The position numbers and the translations under genes were made by a program. From positions 1 to 59,884 of IMG/VR virus record IMGVR_UViG_3300001765_000186: a stretch of DNA of 59,884 nucleotides; one strand, written 5' to 3'. Source of the stretch: a virus (Duplodnaviria > Caudoviricetes). Of the stretch, positions 2,950 to 51,651 are shown in pieces. The notes beneath the pieces are model-generated. The model was not told where the DNA came from. It worked only from the letters and a program-made list of their open reading frames with translations, and searched no databases. Position 1 is the first letter of the stretch; every line of letters begins with the position of its first letter.

Positions 2950-3002
2950 GTTGCCTGAAAATTAATGACTCAATAGATATTAGAGCACAAGACAAAATCA
3001 AC

Positions 3003-3043
3003 AACACTTTAGTGTTTACTTATTAAATCACTTGAGTGATACT
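3003..3043 (+). promoter_or_regulatory. OL-like operators with pL-like promoter
   Basis: AACACTTTAGTGTT (3003-3016) and ATCACTTGAGTGAT (3027-3040) overlap TTTACT-17-GATACT. Confidence 0.8.
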
Positions 3044-3061
3044 TCTCCAAGCCCGCAATAA

Positions 3062-3373
3062 ATGCGGAAACAGGAGCAAGTGATGTACCTAAATTCAAGT
3101 GAAGCGACCAAGCCCAAGCGGCATAGAAGCCTCCCAGGCTTTGAGTCCTATGTCAGCGGCATTCCTTGCCGCATCGACGTTACCTACTACTTTGAGCAAA
3201 AGCCACTCGGCCCAACGTGCGACAGCGATTGGGACTGCCACGGCTACACAGAAATTTCCTTTGACGTGCTGGACCGCAATGGCCGCGATGCGCCCTGGTT
3301 GACCAGAAAGATGTCGCTTGCCGACAAGGAGCGCATCGAAAGCGAAATCTGCCACCAGCACGGAGCCCACTAA
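3062..3373 (+). CDS. Hypothetical phage early protein
   Basis: First ORF after pL-like promoter; TAATG coupling to next gene. Confidence 0.7.
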   Translation: MRKQEQVMYLNSSEATKPKRHRSLPGFESYVSGIPCRIDVTYYFEQKPLGPTCDSDWDCHGYTEISFDVLDRNGRDAPWLTRKMSLADKERIESEICHQHGAH

Positions 3374-3675
3374 TGAACACGATCAAAAGCAAGGCCACCA
3401 CAGCCCTCCTGCTGATGGGCTTTCTGGGTGCGCTGGGCGTTGTTGGCCCCGCCCTGGACATTGAAGATCACGGCTACGAGCACGAAGTAGCGCGTGAAGA
3501 ACTGGACAAGCAGCAGCGGCAAGAGCGTTTTGAGAATGCCGCCCGCGAAGTGTGCGGAGAGAACGCCACTTACCGCCTGACCCACAAGCACGGCGAAATT
3601 ATTTGTCTCACAAAGCGCAATCATGCTACGGGGCGCATTGCCTCGATTGGAGAAACCAATGCCAAAAGCAATTGA
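3373..3675 (+). CDS. Hypothetical protein with N-terminal hydrophobic segment
   Basis: GGAG RBS, coupled start. Confidence 0.7.
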   Translation: MNTIKSKATTALLLMGFLGALGVVGPALDIEDHGYEHEVAREELDKQQRQERFENAAREVCGENATYRLTHKHGEIICLTKRNHATGRIASIGETNAKSN

Positions 3676-3793
3676 CATCACAGGTCAGCGGTTTGGGCGG
3701 CTGGAAGCAATTACCAGCGTAGGGCGCATTCGGCAAGCACAACACCTTGGCAGCAGCAATCCACCTAACCATTCAAACACTGAGGACTAAAAA

Positions 3794-12978: not shown

Positions 12979-13959
12979 ATGGCCTCCCCAAGCAAAACCA
13001 AGGAAGGTAGCTGGCGCATCATCGTCACCGTCAAGGGTGTACGCGATTCGGCTACCTTTGCCACCAAACGCGAGGCTCAGGAATGGGCTGGACAGCGTGA
13101 GGCTGAAATGCGTGCTATCGGGGCGGGGCGAATCTCGGAGTTCGTAACCACGCACCAAGCCATATCCCGCTACCTGGACGAGGAAACCCCGAAGCACCGG
13201 GGTTCCAGCCGGGAGCATGATCGCGTGGTTGCTCTCAAGGCGCAGTTTCCCGACATCCCTCTATCCAAGGTGACGCCCGCTCACATCATTGCGTGGCGCG
13301 ATGCACGGTTGTCGCAAGTCAAGCCAGCCACGGCACTGCGCGAACTAAAGATTGTGGACCTGATCTTCAAACGCTGCTGCTCACTGGAGTGGCGCTACCT
13401 TCGGGAAAATCCCTGCAAGGGTGTCGACCGGCCAAAGGGTTCCGCGAGTCGCACAAGGACTATCAAGGGCACCGAAGTTAGGGCCATGTTGCGCCAGCTT
13501 GGATTCCCCAAACGGGATACGCCCGTCCATGCTGTGGGCTGGTTGTTTCTGTTGGCGCTCTGCACGGGGATGCGCCAGGGCGAATTGCTGGGCATCCATT
13601 GGGGCCATGTATTCCCCAAGTACATCCACTTGCCAAAGACCAAAAACACAGAGCCGCGTGACGTACCGCTATCCCCCGCCGCCCGCAAGATACTGGAGCG
13701 GATGCGGGGCTACCACGCGGTTAGCGTGTTCAATCTGACTACCGCCAAGACCACCCAAGAGTTTGCAAAGGCACGGACCAATACCGGGTTAAGTGGGTTC
13801 ACATTCCACGATTCGCGCCACACCGCCGCCACCAGAATAGGACGATCTGGCAAGCTGACGCTTATGGAAATGTGCAAGATGTTTGGGTGGAAAGACCCGA
13901 AGATGGCGCTCGTTTACTTCAACCCGACCGGCGAAGATTTGGCCGACAAGTTGGGCTGA
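12979..13959 (+). CDS. int: Tyrosine integrase
   Basis: TGMRQGEL, KTKN, FHDSRHTA, FGW, Y in ALVYFN. Confidence 0.93.
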   Translation: MASPSKTKEGSWRIIVTVKGVRDSATFATKREAQEWAGQREAEMRAIGAGRISEFVTTHQAISRYLDEETPKHRGSSREHDRVVALKAQFPDIPLSKVTPAHIIAWRDARLSQVKPATALRELKIVDLIFKRCCSLEWRYLRENPCKGVDRPKGSASRTRTIKGTEVRAMLRQLGFPKRDTPVHAVGWLFLLALCTGMRQGELLGIHWGHVFPKYIHLPKTKNTEPRDVPLSPAARKILERMRGYHAVSVFNLTTAKTTQEFAKARTNTGLSGFTFHDSRHTAATRIGRSGKLTLMEMCKMFGWKDPKMALVYFNPTGEDLADKLG

Positions 13960-21600: not shown

Positions 21601-24600
21601 TCCATCTGCGTTGGCATGAGGTAGCGCATCATGTGGTACATCTCGGCCAGCGAGTTGGATACCGGAGTGCCGGTCGCAAAAACCACCCCTTGCCCGCGCC
21701 CGTTGCGCTCATACAGTTGGTTGGCCTTCACGTACATATCATAGGCACGCTGGCTGCCCTTGCTATCACCCAAGCCCGCAATGTTCTGCATCTTGGTGCT
21801 GAACATCAAATTCTTGAACATATGGGCTTCATCAACAAACAGTTGGTCTACACCCAGTTCCCCGAAGTCGAGTAGCGAGTCCATGGGCTTGTCGCGCAGT
21901 GCCTTGATGCGGTTCTCCAGGCGCTCCTTGATGCCCTCCAATTGCTTGATGGTGCGCTTCTTCTGTTGCTTCTCGCCGTCGCCGTTGTCCACTTCCCGAA
22001 TGGTCTTGACGATGTTTTCCACCTGCTTGGTGTTGAATGCGGCCTCAAAGTCAGGCGCTGGCCGGATGAACCCATAAGACGAGTGCGCGATGATGACGGC
22101 ATCCCAATCGCCCGTGGCGATCTTCGCCAGGAACTTGCGCCGGTTGGACTTTTCAAAATCCTTCTTGGTCGCGGTCAGGATGTTGGCACCGGGGTACAGC
22201 TTGTAGAAGTCAGCCGCCCACTGCTTCACCAAGTGGTTCGGCACCGCGATCATGGGCTTCTTGGCCAGACCGGTGCGGCGCAGTTCCATCGCAGATGCGA
22301 TGACGGTATAGGTCTTGCCGGAGCCCACTACGTGGTCAAGCAGGGCCGTGCGGTCCTGCACGATACGCGCGATGGCGTTGCGCTGGTGGCGTCGGAACTC
22401 CACAATAGCGTTGGGCACCTTGCCAGGAAACGTCATCCATGCGCCGTCATACTGGCGGGTCACATAGTTGTTGTTGGTGTCGTTGTACGCGCGGCCCAGC
22501 AGTTCGGCCCGGTCGGCGTCGGAGAATAGCCAGTCTTGGAACTTGTCGCGCATTTCCTGCGCCTTGGCGTTGGCATTCTCCGTGCCGGTCACGTCGGTGT
22601 GCGTCTTCCCCTCGGCGTCTTTGTACGTCACCTTGACCGGCTTGTTGTTCAGCAGCGCAGAGAGAATGTCCGAGCCCCGATAGTCCGGCGTGCCCCATGT
22701 GTTGGTGTTGGCGGTGTCGCTCCCGGCGTGGATGTAGGACGAGTAGCCGCCCGAAGCCTTCACATACTTGATGCTGGCGTCCGTGCCCTCGCCCAACAGG
22801 CTCTTGGCAAAGTCTTGGTAGACCGACTCTGGCACCCATGGGGAACCGATACGCGCGTTGATTTCATGCGCTCCAACGTCCTCGGGCTGCACAGTCTCCA
22901 GGGCCTTGATGTTGTTGAACATGCCCGCCTGCTTGGCTTGCACCAGCTTGGCGCGGACATTGCCCGACAAGTAGGCATCGCGCAGCACGTATTCACCGGT
23001 CGCGGGGTCGTTGAACAGCAGCGGCGAGTCACCGCCAGACAGTTCGTGCAGCGCCTCGTCGGCATCCTTGCCCAGCAGTTCACCGATGTATTTGGTGTCC
23101 AGCCTGCCACGCTCGGCCATGGACACATTCAGCGCATCGGCGGGGCTCTCCACCTTGGCAACTTGCTGGCGGGCGTCGATCACCCGGCGGGTGAATATCG
23201 GCCCCTTGTTGGCCGTGGATGGCACCATCTTGATGCCCATGGACTTGGCAGCGGCCAGACCGATTGCCGGGGTGTAGCCATACTCCAGCGAAGCCAGTAG
23301 CGGGAAGTCTGGATCATCACCAAACACCCGAATGGTGCCGGGGTCGTTGATGCGCCCATGGTCCTTGGTGAATGCGTCGTACTGGTCGTTCAGCGTCTTG
23401 CGCAACGCTTCCATGTTGGCATCATTGGCCAACTCGGCGGCCAGCAGGCTACGCACGGTGGAGCGCATACCGGCCAGGGACTTGATGCGGTTAAACCCGT
23501 TGTCACCCAGCTTGGTTTCTTCGGTCCACTGGCTCTGTGCGGTCACTTCCTGCGCCCGCGCCTCGCCCGCGATGTCCTTGATACGCTGGAACAGCTTGCC
23601 GTCTTCCTCAAAATACCCGCCCTCTTGCACCTGGGGGTTTTGCAGCGTCTTGATAAGCGCGTCCTGCAAGCTGGCCGTGTTGGTGATGGCGCGGTCCACG
23701 TAGACATTCGCGGGCAGCTTGGATACCGCCTCCTTGAGCAATGCCGCTGTGTCTTGTCCAGGCTTTTGCACCAGTGCGGTGGATTCACCCCGGTACATGG
23801 TCCCATATGCGCCAAACTTGCCCAGCATCATTTCTGGGTGGTCGATGAAATACTGGTTCAGCGGGACAGTGCGCCCTTCTGCGTCAGTGATTTGGCCAAC
23901 GGCCAGCCACTCCTTGGCATTCGCACGCGCGGCCTTGCCGCCCCACTCCGATTCGGGCAGCTTCTGCAAGAAAATCAGGTCGGTGGTTACTTCGGTGTTC
24001 GCGTTCTTGCTGAATGCGTTGTTCGGCAACCGGATAGCGCCAAGTAGTTTTGTCTTTTCAGCGATGTACTTCCGCGCGGTGTCGGTTTGAGCATCCATGA
24101 AAGAATTGGTGATGACCTGGGCCAGAATGCCGCCCTCGCGCAGCATGTCCACTTCCTTGGCGAAAAAATAGTTGTGCAGGGACAGGCCAGACAGGTGCTT
24201 GCGCCCCGAACGGTCTACCTGTGGATCTGACGCGAACGGGGGATTGCCGACCGCCACGTCGTAGAAGTCATCATTGCCGACGAACTCGGTGAAGTCTGCC
24301 TCTTGGATGTTCTGCTGTGGGTACAGGTTGCGGGCAATCTTCGCGGAGAACGGTTCCCGCTCAATGGCGGTGAACCGGCTTGCGCTGCGCATGGTCGCGG
24401 GCATCAAGCCAATGAAGTTACCTACACCGGCTCCACCCTCCAGGGCGCGTCCACCGGCAAACCCGAAGCGCTCCAGGGCGGCATAGATGCCGTCCTGAAC
24501 CACTTGGCGGGACGTGAAGTGGGCGTAGCGCGTGGATACCCGTGCGTCGGCATAGTCACGCTCCGACATCAAGCCCTTCAACTCGGTGTATTCCTTGGAC

Positions 24601-27600
24601 CAGTCGGCGTTATCTTCGTCAAACGCCTGGGCCAAACCGCCCCAGCCAACGTACTTAGCCAATACGGCCTGCTCGGTCGGCGTGGCCATGCGGCCATCGG
24701 TGTCCAGTTGGGTCAACAGGCGAATCGCCTCTATGTTGCCCTTGAACTTGGCCTTTTGCCCGCCTTCGCCCAGTGCGAAGTCGTCTTCAATGGTGAAGTC
24801 TGCAAACGCTGGCGCTGGTATCGGCGCAGCGTTGGGTGCCGGGTTGGCTGGTATCAGTCCTCCCGTTCCCCCGGCAGTATCAACGAACCCAAGCCCCGGT
24901 TGTATTCCTGCATCGCCTTGAACCCCGGACTGTCCGGCGCTTCCTCGCTTGCTTCGCTTTCCTCGGGCGGGAACAGGTACTGCTCCCGTGTCGCTTCCCA
25001 CGCCTCCTGATACTTGAACCCCTGCGCTATCAGTAGATCCATTTCCTTCTGGGTCGCCTCTGCCGCTTCCGTCAGGGCTTTCTCCAGTTGGTGCGACTTC
25101 ACCAGTTCCCGAAACTTGCTCGGTTGAAACTCCCTCCAGTGGGTTCGGGCTTGTGCTATCCAGTTTGAGTGTTGCATTTTGGGTATCCTTGGCCGGAGTA
25201 TCGGCTTCATCTTCTGATTTTTCAAGTTCCTCAAGGGAATCGAAGCCCGCGACCGTCTTTTTAGAAGTCACTGGCTTGTCCTTGTGGCGACCGGCCACAG
25301 AGATATAGGCACCCTGCAAGGTGTCGAACGGGATGGCGTCAGCGGTTTCTTGGTCGATGCCATTGGCGATGAAGTCGCGCACGTAGGCCACGGCCTGCTT
25401 AAACGACACAGACCCTAATTCAATTGCACCGTCAAATAGTTCTATGACGATGGGCAAAAGCTGTTGTTCTTCCTCCTGGGTCCAGTTCATGCGCGTGTTC
25501 TTGCCTGCAAGGTGGGCCAGCTTGCCCAAGGCGTTGAACATCTTGGCTTTGGCGGCCTTCGCTTCGTCGGATAGGGCGGCTTTGGCGTCAGGCTTTGCTA
25601 CAGTTTCCGTAGCTACGGGCGCATTATCGGCGGGGGCTAGAGGTTGTTTTGTCTCTGCCTTCACTTCCTCAATGCTGGGCACGTCATCACGCTTGCCGTC
25701 GATAAAGTCTTGAATGGCCGGTGAACTGGACTTTGCCCCGGAATACGTCGGGTTTGGCTTTGCCTCGTAGCTCTGCATTTCTGCGTCAAGCTCGTCGTTC
25801 TGGCCTTCCAGTTGCGCAATCTCCCGCTTGATCTGGTTGATCTGCGTTTCCAGCCGGTCATCACCAACCATGCCGTTTGCATCCTGCTTGGCTTGCAACT
25901 CCATCAGCATGTTGCGGGCTTTGGTGACTGGGCTTAGTTCAGCCGCATTCGCAGTTTGCATATTGCGAACGGGTGCAGCATCCGGCCCCATCACCTTGAC
26001 CAGCTTGTCCTGCACGCGCGGTGCCAGATTCTCCCAAGACTTGAACTGCAACTTGTCGGCGGTAACCTGGGGAAACCCTGCCTTGAGGATCAGGACCATC
26101 CGGTCAACATTGCGGGTCCGCGTCCACTCTATTTCGGCTACGCCTTCTGGGGTTTCGGCTGGTTGTTGCGCTTTTGACGGCTTGGCTTTGGTGGTTTGAG
26201 TGCCATTGTCTTGTCCTTGAGTAGTTGCTACAGGTTTGATAGCTGCTTGCGCAGTATCTGCGGGGGCTACAGGCGCTTCTTGCTTGGATACGATGTCCCA
26301 GCGCGTTGCACTTGTCTTCACGGCCTTGTGGGTGTCCTTCAAACCATTCTTGGTGATGAACTCCCCGGCCTTCATGGGGTTGCCGAAATAGGCCGAGCCC
26401 TTGGCAATACGGTCTATGGCCTTGGCACGCTTCTGCGGGATGCCAAACAGGTGATCCATGTCGGCCTTGACGCTACCAAGGCTGGCGGGGCCGGGTGCTG
26501 GTTTCCCTGCGCTCCCTGCGCTCCCTGCGGGATTTTTCTCTACCCCATTGGCTTCCACCTGGGCGGTTCTGGCTCCGGGTGCGGGTTCAGCGGCATCTGT
26601 ATTTGCTCCCACAGCTTGCGCCTGCGCGTCTGGCGTGGCTTCGGTTCGCGCTGTGGGCTCGTTGGCTGCTGGCGTTGGGTTTTCGACACGGAGCACGTCC
26701 TTTGCGGTGAAGCCTGGGCCTGCACTGGCAGTCACCTGCGTGCCAAGCGATTTTGGCTGTGGGTTTCCTTGGGCTACTGGCGCTGCATTGCCTCCACCGG
26801 CCTGTTCACCAGATTGACCCACGTAATCAGCAACTGCTCCGCTCGGGTTGTCTCCCTCGGAGAGTCGATCAAGTTGTCCAAATTCCACGCCTCCAACGGC
26901 GTTATCGCCAACAGGTCCAGCGGGTTCTGTGCTTCCGGGTTCAGTTCCAGTAGTTGGGCTGACATTGAATGCGTCCTTGAGTCGGGCCACAAAGCCATCA
27001 AACACCGGGGCAATGGTCCAGCCAGTGCCCTCCAACTTTGCGCGGCGTGCTGCTGCAAACCGTGTTGCAAATGGTGCGCCCATGCCGTTGAGGATGTCGC
27101 CATCCTGGGTGCCTTCGTACTTGCGGCCACCGTCGGCCACCGCTTGATTGCTGAACAGAACCGCCCGCTTGTCTTCCTCGGACATCTGCGCCTCGGCCAA
27201 TGGGCCTTTGGTGATTGCCTGGGTGGCTGTGTCCTGCTGCTGCGCTTCTGCCTCCTGCTGGGCCATGTGCGCCTCGTAGACGGCTCGGTCTTGGTCAACG
27301 ACCTGGGTCTGCTGGATTTCGTCATGGATGCCGCCGTCCACCGCACCAGCGGCCACGCGAGACAACGGGCCAGCTTCGGGCGTGATGCCCATGGCCTGGG
27401 ATGGCTTGATGGGGTCAAGGGCACCGGTAGATGCCAAGATTTCATCGTCATGGCTTGCCACGGCACGCTGGGCGGCCAACTGCGCATCGCGCTCTTGCTG
27501 CTGCTGCGCCTGCTGGGCGGTCAGTGCCGCACGGCCATCAGGCGGCGTAGTCTGCGCGACGTTCGGCGCACCCACTTCCTCAGATTGCACAGTTGCAAGC

Positions 27601-50082: not shown

Positions 50083-51651
50083 TTATGCGGCCTGCGCCGA
50101 TGTCCGTGTGTTGTTGGATGCGGCCTTCTTCAACCGGTCGCGCCAGGAAGGCTCCCGGTTGTGTCTATCCAGCTTGGGGATGCCATTGGCGAACGTCATA
50201 GCCACGCTGTCGCCCTTGTCGGGGCTGCGGCCCAGCACTTCGCGTATCTCGTCCTTGGAGCGGATCAGGATGGCGGCCTTGGTGCCCAGCGTCACGACCT
50301 TGTAGCGAACGGCGCACAGGTCGGCCTTCAACTCGCTGTCAGGCGGTAGCGCAATGGGGTCTGGTGCGGTCGGGTCCAGTGCCTCACGCATACGCCAGTA
50401 CATTTCTGCCCGCTTGTTGCGGAACCGTAGCTGGCCTTCCTTGTCCATCAGGGTTGATGCCTCACTGCCGACCAACGGGTACACCAGCAAGTTCAAGCCA
50501 CGGATGAAGTCCAAGGCGCTGGAACCGATGCCGATGGCATCAACCACCACGGGCGCACCGTTGCGAATCAGGGGCACAACGAACCCGGCGGCTGTTGGGC
50601 CATCCTTCGTCACAACACCTGGGGCTGTCACTATCGTGTCGAACCAGTTGCCGTAGCGGGGTGCTGCCGATGTCTTGTCCAGGCCACCGCGCGACGGGTC
50701 AAGGCCAATGCATGTCATCTGCCCCTTGGCGTCACGGGGCTTCCAGCGGGCCTGGGCGGCTGTCACCCACTCGGTAGGTATCAACTGCCATGCCGGGTCA
50801 CTCGCGCCCGCGTTGAAGTCCCCGCGCAGCATCTGGCTACGCAAGGGCTCGGGCAGGGATTGCAAAGTAGCTTTGTAGCCGGTGCTGCTCAGAAAAAGGT
50901 TGTCGTCAACGCTGGAAGGAATGAAGGTCCGGCTCTTGGGCTTCATCCAGTCCTTGCCGACCAGCACGGGCTCCCCGTCTGGCACTTCCTCGTCCTCGCC
51001 CTTCACGTTGGTGACGTACCAGCGCAATTCGCCCGGCTTGGCGGGGTTAGGGTGTTGCGGGTCCAGCCACGCAGCCCAGAAGCGTTTAACCCACTCCCCG
51101 GCGGCATCCGTGGGCGGGTTCCCGGCGCATACCACGCGCTGGCGAATGTTTGGGTTGTCGGTACGCAACCAGCCTATCAGCGTGCGGAACTGCGACTCGG
51201 TGAAGTGGCAGATTTCATCGAAAAATTTACCGTCATGGGGCCTACCTTGGTACTTCACCCAATCGGTTTCCAGCTTGACGCTACCCAACTCCATGACCTT
51301 GCCACCTGGGAGCCGCCAAACGCCTGTGGTGCTGTTGTAGCCGTCACGGGTACCCAGAATGCTCGTCATCCGTTCTTCGATGCCGATAAGCTGCACGGCT
51401 TCACGCCGGAAGATGATGCTATGCTCCTGTGTGGTGCAGGCAAGTCCCATCAATAGGTCGGTCTTGCCGCCACCAGCCGCACCGCCGTAGAACGTGATGT
51501 CGGCCAACGTCATGTAGGCGCTTTTCTGCGGCCCTGGCTGTGGAACCCATATCTTTTTGGTCCGCGCAACCAGCTTCACAAGCTCGGCCCGCTTCTTGGG
51601 CGTCATGTCCTTGAAGCTCTCCATCAGGTCCGCAGTAGCAGCGTTAGCCAT
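50083..51651 (-). CDS. terL: Terminase large subunit
   Basis: YGGAAGGGKT, FFDE, GNPP, GLDPSRGG.D, RSPDKGDS. Confidence 0.93.
   Translation of the reverse strand: MANAATADLMESFKDMTPKKRAELVKLVARTKKIWVPQPGPQKSAYMTLADITFYGGAAGGGKTDLLMGLACTTQEHSIIFRREAVQLIGIEERMTSILGTRDGYNSTTGVWRLPGGKVMELGSVKLETDWVKYQGRPHDGKFFDEICHFTESQFRTLIGWLRTDNPNIRQRVVCAGNPPTDAAGEWVKRFWAAWLDPQHPNPAKPGELRWYVTNVKGEDEEVPDGEPVLVGKDWMKPKSRTFIPSSVDDNLFLSSTGYKATLQSLPEPLRSQMLRGDFNAGASDPAWQLIPTEWVTAAQARWKPRDAKGQMTCIGLDPSRGGLDKTSAAPRYGNWFDTIVTAPGVVTKDGPTAAGFVVPLIRNGAPVVVDAIGIGSSALDFIRGLNLLVYPLVGSEASTLMDKEGQLRFRNKRAEMYWRMREALDPTAPDPIALPPDSELKADLCAVRYKVVTLGTKAAILIRSKDEIREVLGRSPDKGDSVAMTFANGIPKLDRHNREPSWRDRLKKAASNNTRTSAQAA

Follow-up and report, generated by a model that had tools for sequence, protein, structure and literature searches.

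A small gene, very probably real, separately initiated and dual-coding, lies out of frame within the giant DarB-like gene of a tailed phage (Duplodnaviria; Caudoviricetes) known from the IMG/VR record IMGVR_UViG_3300001765_000186. The record is a 59,884-bp virus sequence with an estimated completeness of 96%, and is referred to below in its entirety as the window. From an ATG and a Shine-Dalgarno-like (SD-like) site inside the giant coding sequence (CDS), internal initiation, most likely on the same late structural-operon mRNA, would yield a free acidic protein of 107 amino acids (aa) with a four-helix, TnpV-like domain and a disordered acidic tail. Read in the host frame, the same 324 bases would supply a flexible linker between the N-terminal modules of the giant protein and the part that holds the methylase and helicase.

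Start signals and conservation

The nested open reading frame (ORF) begins with an ATG at 25177-25175 and ends with a TGA at 24856-24854 on the minus strand. The original prediction had described an AAGGA-N8-ATG opening a 107-aa ORF in the +1 frame at 24854..25177, which is exactly what the sequence contains. The frame extends slightly upstream, where a TTG at 25234 would give a product of 126 aa and a further in-frame ATG lies at 25210; the start is set at 25177 because the family alignment places it there. A weak promoter-like site just before the ATG (Table 1) is of doubtful significance.

The arrangement is retained in a set of loci assembled from database phage records and 69 further IMG/VR loci, which together give 77 loci and 66 unique sequences. 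The start codon is ATG in 61 of the unique loci and GTG in the other 5, and in 50 of the 66 it stands exactly 5 codons ahead of an invariant Trp. An SD-like site at an initiation spacing of 6-10 nucleotides (nt) is found across the family, and with an ATG or GTG in 66/66 unique loci the nested gene has, at the sequence level, translation start signals of its own. The mean SD-like duplex energy in the family is -6.6 kcal/mol, compared with -2.25 kcal/mol for 5,060 other ATGs from the same loci, and values of -6 kcal/mol or lower are reached by 61% of nested starts but only 6.3% of these control ATGs, a roughly ten-fold difference. The nested ORF also matches phrog_938 (E=2e-15), and none of nine other same-strand alternative-frame ORFs inside the giant gene (73-237 aa) has a PHROG match.

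A tblastn search with the nested product recovers 20 phage records, representing about 11 distinct phages, and one Brucella plasmid-like record. The hosts of the phages that carry the gene include Erwinia, Klebsiella, Pseudomonas, Sinorhizobium, Ochrobactrum, Vibrio and Agrobacterium. In these records the homologue always lies under the giant gene, and it is annotated in none of the 20 phage records nor in the plasmid record, which bears out the expectation that standard annotation would miss it. Where the giant CDS is annotated on the strand of the nested gene, the deposited coordinates place the latter in the +1 frame in 6/6 phages (PEp14, SopranoGao, POI1126, Pavtok, VvAW1 and Atu_ph08). 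In 75/77 loci, as in the window, the host frame runs open across the nested ORF or far past it; the two exceptions are Sinorhizobium phage PBC5 (L003) and a locus with a decayed giant gene (L018). A control stretch of 80 codons in the same genes, coding in one frame alone, has an open +1 frame in just 1/64 loci, which argues that the nested ORF is more than a product of chance; VvAW1, a Vibrio phage of lower GC content, also retains it. Within one sampled bacterial order, family members turn up in only 2/301 genomes, including the genome at the centre of the sample, a rarity that fits a sporadic, prophage-borne distribution.

A programmed +1 (or -2) frameshift out of the giant frame could also reach the TnpV-like frame, and would produce a truncated protein of about 1,230 aa beside the full-length one. 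Forms in which the domain is in frame with upstream sequence exist among relatives (PBC5 gp22, P0164 and P0028/P0029/P0030) and, counting against separate initiation, keep a frameshift-type product conceivable, as does phrog_938, whose profile of 2,185 positions carries the domain at positions 2083-2161. Such a mechanism is nonetheless very unlikely. In 12/66 loci a stop in the nested frame lies 2-6 codons upstream of the start, overlapping the SD-like site in PEp14, SopranoGao and Pavtok, so that any shift would be confined to a few unconserved codons. The conserved element is the initiation codon together with its SD-like site at 6-10 nt; the upstream sequences inspected revealed no conserved slippery heptamer to which the alternative frame would be open.

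Several relatives are irregular. The giant gene of PBC5 (L003/L105, NC_003324, 16949-32697) is deposited as two 'DarB-like' CDSs separated by a 1.6-kb unannotated gap. The first of these ends with the TnpV-like domain in frame, and a frame change with respect to the close relative Atu_ph08 lies just upstream; judged from the sequence, the frame change and the gap look like the outcome of mutation or of an error in early sequencing. In a 1,150-aa protein from Ochrobactrum intermedium (P0032), the host-frame linker switches to nested-frame sequence in the middle of the overlap, which points to a frameshift mutation in that prophage or to a faulty assembly of it. In one IMG/VR contig (L018:2956-3324) the giant gene has decayed, its host frame being open only over 2964-3701 and its methylase part lying in another frame, and the nested TnpV-like ORF is intact in this single case. 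In Pseudomonas phage Itty13 (L002, NC_070969, 5006-11419), two 'hypothetical proteins', gp02 and gp03, are annotated opposite to the DarB-like giant frame and the nested gene, probably as a wrong-strand annotation.

Selection in the two overlapping frames

Over 68 aligned codons of the overlap, nucleotide diversity at nested positions 1, 2 and 3 is 0.341, 0.326 and 0.455, respectively, and the least variable of these, nested position 2, is the wobble position of the host frame. In a single-coding control, the methylase N-terminal region of the same loci, diversity at host positions 1, 2 and 3 is 0.310, 0.273 and 0.588. Substitutions counted by class in 16 phylogenetically independent close pairs point the same way. 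Nested-silent changes that alter the host peptide number 159 and make up 51.6% of changes against 20.0% of opportunities, a 2.58-fold enrichment, whereas host-silent changes that alter the nested product number 44 and make up 14.3% of changes against 27.8% of opportunities (0.51-fold). A frame-specific comparison of this kind had been proposed as a check on the ORF, and its outcome favours the nested frame. Across the set, identity is 53% for the nested product (BLOSUM score 2.84 per site) and 38% for the host peptide (1.46 per site).

The host frame is also maintained. An exact calculation, based on synonymous recoding with the codon usage of each locus, gives the probability that the host frame would be free of stops by chance, given the nested protein; its median is P=0.011 over the 66 loci and its value in the window P=0.010. 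As chance openness is about 1%, yet the host frame is open in all but 2/77 loci, read-through of the linker is itself under selection. Diversity at the nested wobble position (0.455) falls below that of an ordinary wobble position (0.588), so neither frame evolves freely; the host frame also constrains the sequence, which fits dual coding. Both frames are under selection, the nested one more strongly: its codons are subject to purifying selection, and the host frame is kept open.

It is extremely improbable that the ORF is unexpressed and that its openness and conservation are a by-product of constraint on the host linker, or at the nucleotide level, in a GC-rich genome. The genome is about 60% GC and holds many chance alternative-frame ORFs, and the host-frame peptide has conserved patches too. 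Among the sequencing runs found with the region there is no RNA run. The substitution pattern is, however, the opposite of that expected from host-only selection, with the host wobble position least variable and a two-fold depletion of host-silent changes set against a 2.6-fold enrichment of nested-silent ones. Retention of the ORF in lower-GC VvAW1, the closed +1 frame of the control region in all but 1/64 loci, the conserved start codon and SD-like site, and the occurrence of the domain in frame elsewhere, with matches to a Pfam family, likewise oppose this explanation. The claim of the original prediction that this is a real gene is supported by the retention of ORF, start and SD-like site and by purifying selection specific to the nested frame, in a set of about 66 distinct lineages.

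The giant host protein, the TnpV-like product and its neighbours

The giant gene takes up about 21% of the window genome (12,864/59,884 bases) and is the last gene of a structural operon on the minus strand, in which the terminase gene (50083-51651) is followed by portal, major head, tail-fibre and head-closure genes. A giant gene likewise closes the structural operon in Bcep22-like and PBC5-like podophages, and DarB-like giants fill a fifth of these phage genomes (22% in JC1). The product matches phrog_10089, 'DarB-like antirestriction', with E=0. Besides the methylase, it contains an SNF2/ResIII helicase at approximately residues 2046-2655 (PF04851, PF00176 and PF00271), an HExxH domain, and a C-terminal PLxRFG domain at residues 3608-4275 (NF032893, E=1e-189). 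Methylase, SNF2-type helicase and PLxRFG domain are thus combined in one polypeptide encoded in a structural operon, which identifies the giant as a DarB-like polyvalent protein.

The linker sits between a helical domain, called X here, whose motif lies at host residues 1072-1083, and the methylase N-terminal segment. As the original prediction had placed it, the nested gene comes just before the methylase domain, its stop preceding the segment that begins at residue 1246. The description of the host reading as Gly/Ser/Pro-rich filler also fits, since Gly, Ser, Pro, Thr, Asp and Glu make up 62% of the linker, as against 38% of the whole protein; Gly alone accounts for 24%, and hydrophobic residues for 16.5% as against 27%.

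Table 1. Features of the window, with loci and phages of the second nested family
Feature	Position	Strand	Basis or remark
Nested gene of 107 codons and a TGA stop, +1 relative to the giant gene	24854..25177	-	sequence
Shine-Dalgarno-like AAGGA, 8 nt before the nested ATG, within the giant coding sequence	25186..25190	-	sequence
Weak sigma-70-like site TTGAAA-17-GATACT, 20 nt before the nested ATG	25197..25225	-	9/12 matches; 1 found vs 0.2 expected in shuffles; significance doubtful
Dual-coding stretch in host reading, residues 1121-1229, Gly/Ser/Pro/Asp/Glu-rich linker	24852..25178	-	composition
Helical X domain of the giant protein, residues 996-1112, motif DTLQGAYI	25203..25553	-	alignment A4; directly upstream of the nested gene
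Methylase module, conserved N-terminal segment, host residues 1246-1301, ends YVGWGG	24636..24803	-	starts just past the nested stop
Eco57I-type N6-adenine methylase core, host residues 1412-1504	24027..24305	-	PF07669, E=1.1e-8
DarB-like polyvalent virion-protein gene, 4,287 codons	15675-28538	-	last gene of the structural operon
Complete head-tail module	28551-51651	-	gene content of the operon
Integrase gene	12979-13959	+	suggests a temperate phage
MSLTSVAAPIWN family loci	L079:6344-6712, L083:946-1314, L089:6012-6407		also L085, L087
MSLTSVAAPIWN family phages	Parlo NC_048758, vB_KpnP_ZX1 MW722080, Skulduggery NC_070827, Ruegeria phage 45A6 KT820175		

The nested product consists of a four-helix domain (residues 1-70) and an acidic tail. 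In an AlphaFold2 (AF2) model computed from a 70-sequence alignment (A3), residues 1-70 have a per-residue confidence (pLDDT) of about 90 and form helices at 2-17, 19-27, 31-51 and 56-67; the tail is of low confidence, with one helix at 84-97. Residues H13, W14, E16, P19, L31, T42, G53 and A59 are invariant in the family. Its 70 members are acidic (median net charge -6, pI 5.2), and the charge of the window protein is found mostly in the tail. A homologue search, suggested with the original prediction, did recover relatives: one protein database holds 24 family proteins of 104-118 aa with 51-94% identity. A search over 1.84 billion representatives assigns 1,397 clusters to the family at E<=1e-3, of which 518 reach E<=1e-10; their representatives are mostly 73-150 aa long, with the domain at the N-terminus.

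The likeness to TnpV, which the original prediction had offered loosely, stands as a distant relation of the family. At E<=0.01, 32/70 family members match the Pfam TnpV profile (PF14198), with a best value of 2.9e-7, over the same region, approximately positions 20-82 of 111. One member (P0111) scores 26.0 bits against TnpV and another (P0005) has a precomputed PF14198 hit. For the window protein itself the likeness falls short, and this weighs against a TnpV assignment: its scores of 15.4 bits (E=0.018, 126-aa form) and 14.8 bits (genome search) lie below the Pfam cut-off of 27 bits, and the 107-aa form matches no Pfam family at E<=0.01. Like TnpV, of about 110 aa, the nested product is a small helical protein on a mobile element, having 107 aa and its own start in a phage record. 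It differs in sitting inside a phage giant gene, whereas Pfam describes TnpV proteins as stand-alone genes of conjugative or mobilisable transposons. The titles and abstract openings of the TnpV papers found state no function, and the name supplies no mechanism.

Other searches with the nested product add little. An ESM Atlas search yielded no function, and a cluster with 26% TnpV members at rank 17 (score 0.80) is a lead only; an NCBIfam scan of the protein (P0001) gave a single sub-threshold match. Also unfavourable is the outcome of the fold searches, which found no assignable fold, the best match, 2apl_A (Z 7.4, wide VIA search), being within the noise of helical proteins. Foldseek against the PDB returned nothing at E<=0.001 with the nested model, a sequence-profile search of the PDB gave no match, and the sole match from a BFVD structure search was a fragment of the PBC5 protein.

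The position of the gene and the fusions of its domain are more informative about function. A domain called X' is encoded upstream in the host frame in 43/66 loci, with a median of 10 residues between the end of the domain and the nested start, and X is found there in 4/66 loci, the window among them, so that X or X' precedes the nested gene in 47/66. The TnpV-like domain is fused in frame to X in P0028/P0029, a protein of 312 aa found in several independent contigs, and to X' in P0030; in P0067 and P0165 it is followed by a stretch that, judged by eye, resembles X'. An N-terminal polyvalent part is joined to the domain in PBC5 gp22 and in P0164 (956 aa, domain at 841-931). Stand-alone proteins with the domain in frame behind upstream sequence are 312, 238 and 209 aa long. 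The 312-aa genes at L095:7001-7939 and L098:7001-7939, on metagenome contigs recovered by a metagenome scan, represent two lineages of this in-frame form; in both, the internal Met that corresponds to the nested start lacks an SD-like site, a contrast that likewise counts against frameshifting as the source of the nested product. The 312-aa gene adjoins genes for a type III restriction-modification (R-M) pair (Res, Mod), a cpYpsA SLOG protein and an ADP-ribosylglycohydrolase. In genome contigs, a single-protein search found no P0029-type locus, and an alignment search gave only ordinary giants with or without a nested gene.

Because natural fusions join the TnpV-like domain to X or X', a functional partnership with the giant protein is tentatively favoured. 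The original prediction had suggested a chaperone or regulator of the methylase-helicase; such linkage as emerged, however, concerns the upstream helical domain and not the methylase. By analogy with other systems, the small protein may, rather tentatively, act in trans as a partner of the giant protein, binding X or X' and helping to fold, package or accompany it. The giant protein of the related phage JC1 (gp69) has been found in virions by mass spectrometry, and packaging of P1 DarB needs the small accessory proteins DarA, Hdf and DdrA, according to passages of one report (PMC9144972). In that source and a second one, as far as the portions dealing with these phages go, no homologues of the DarA, Hdf and Ddr accessory proteins are known in the DarB-like phages considered here (PMC9144972; PMC6630229). 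DarB of P1 and the giants of the Bcep22, PBC5 and PEp14 type share a methylase and a helicase in the virion module, and by this analogy the host giant protein would be packaged in the virion and protect against restriction. The partner would then accompany it into the capsid and the next host, much as the accessory proteins of P1 DarB do. In sequence, the nested protein was not found to be related to those P1 proteins.

Several observations weigh against a partnership of this kind. In 19/66 loci neither X nor X' is present within 300 residues upstream, one of these loci being PBC5, where the domain is in the other frame. A comparison of X with X' by hhalign is not significant (probability 1%, E=0.051). 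The AF2 model of the 312-aa fusion shows two separate domains with a low-confidence linker and no confident packing (pTM 0.37). P0062 (367 aa) and P0088 (250 aa) have an N-terminal TnpV-like domain followed by predicted membrane-like hydrophobic segments, an architecture at odds with a simple role as partner of the X domain. A prediction of the complex between the X domain (A4) and the nested protein (A3) scored 0.00, yielding no answer, and carries no weight either way.

The main rival on function, itself doubtful, is that the nested gene is real and independent of the giant protein, as an anti-defence or host-takeover module, for example an acidic decoy, or as a selfish passenger. Nesting would then merely secure co-inheritance and late expression. 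An independent role is consistent with the acidity of the family and the shortness of most of its representatives, with the membrane-segment fusions of P0062 and P0088 in place of X or X', with the stand-alone TnpV genes on mobile elements described by Pfam, and with the intact nested ORF beside a decayed giant gene in L018 (n=1). The 312-aa form also occurs among separate polyvalent-type modules beside a type III R-M system. Against it stand the position of the nested gene right after X' or X in 47/66 loci and the fusions to these domains (P0028/P0029/P0030 and, by eye, P0067 and P0165), which are a classic sign of a physical or functional link. Pfam, PHROG and NCBIfam scans, moreover, detect no similarity of the nested product to known anti-restriction or defence families.

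Origin and meaning of the dual-coding junction

The nested frame carries the stronger constraint, to judge by its substitutions, and is probably the older reading. It looks older because its product is structured, has relatives that exist as ordinary genes or domains, and is more strongly constrained; the host linker looks newer because it is compositionally biased and poorly conserved. The original prediction had spoken of an overprinted gene. The out-of-frame nesting is real, but the direction of overprinting is probably the reverse, as the host linker seems to be the newer of the two. On the simplest account, two neighbouring genes may have fused when a small gene lying between them in a different frame came to be read through, and the small gene would then have survived nested, with a new internal ribosome-binding site.

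A second conserved +1 ORF, of 122-131 aa and starting MSLTSVAAPIWN, occurs at the junction of X and a Gly/Ser-rich linker in other DarB-like giants (Table 1). It is unrelated to the first, as the TnpV-like profile does not match it, and it belongs to no Pfam family. Its homologues in phages occupy the +1 frame with respect to the deposited giant CDS in 4/4 cases, and none of them is annotated. Phage ZX1 is classified in Lastavirus (at the genus level only), as are LASTA and SopranoGao, both of which have the TnpV-like gene; since members of the same genus carry different nested families, the cassette seems exchangeable. Further loci (L078, L084, L086, L088 and L090) contain X without a nested gene, and other in-frame sequence replaces the linker. 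The presence of a second nested family at the same junction suggests a general phenomenon.

In the spanin genes of phage lambda, Rz1 is embedded in the +1 frame of Rz. The nested gene resembles Rz1 in being a whole small +1 gene, with its own start, inside a larger gene on the same strand, its ORF lying entirely within residues 1121-1229 of the 4,287 encoded by its host. Unlike Rz, the host is a 12.9-kb multi-domain virion-protein gene and the overlap is restricted to an inter-domain linker. The nested frame is here the better conserved and probably the older one, and at least two unrelated nested families occur at the same junction. The products of Rz and Rz1 are described, in the relevant part of one report, as subunits of one complex (PMC5295617), whereas an interaction between the giant and nested proteins is only proposed here.

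The polyvalent proteins described by Iyer et al. (2017) (PMC5512222), in the main text of that work, likewise combine many effector domains, PLxRFG included, in one polypeptide. The TnpV-like unit resembles a shuffled polyvalent module, being fused in some elements and free in others. It departs from the polyvalent concept in that the module is kept separate by out-of-frame nesting; TnpV, frameshifting, overlapping genes, PBC5 and PEp14 are not mentioned in that main text. Titles and abstract openings in the literature searched contain no description of a gene nested in a DarB-like gene, nor do the relevant passages of PMC5512222, PMC6630229 and PMC9144972; an earlier mention elsewhere may exist. 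Embedded out-of-frame phage genes are already known, and the conserved gene in the DarB-like linker appears, from these texts, to be a new case.

A family of about 1,400 clusters is thus without annotation in all 20 records of isolated phages (about 11 phages), and because it is unannotated, proteomic and functional screens of these phages have probably overlooked it. The locus offers an unusually clean example of dual coding in a double-stranded DNA phage, in which the nested frame encodes the structured and probably older protein, and the host frame a disordered linker. It also suggests a route by which giant polyvalent genes may be built, namely fusion by reading through an intervening gene. 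More speculatively, the junctions of polyvalent genes could in general be dual-coding cassettes derived by read-through of older small genes, between which the TnpV-like and MSLTSVAAPIWN families swap; their products might then be obligatory trans-subunits, serving as chaperones for packaging, as adaptors or as factors injected along with the giant protein, and would be synthesised from the same mRNA next to the nascent chain. A small, conserved partner whose gene lies within that of the DarB-like giants would be a candidate for the missing accessory function in their folding, packaging or ejection.

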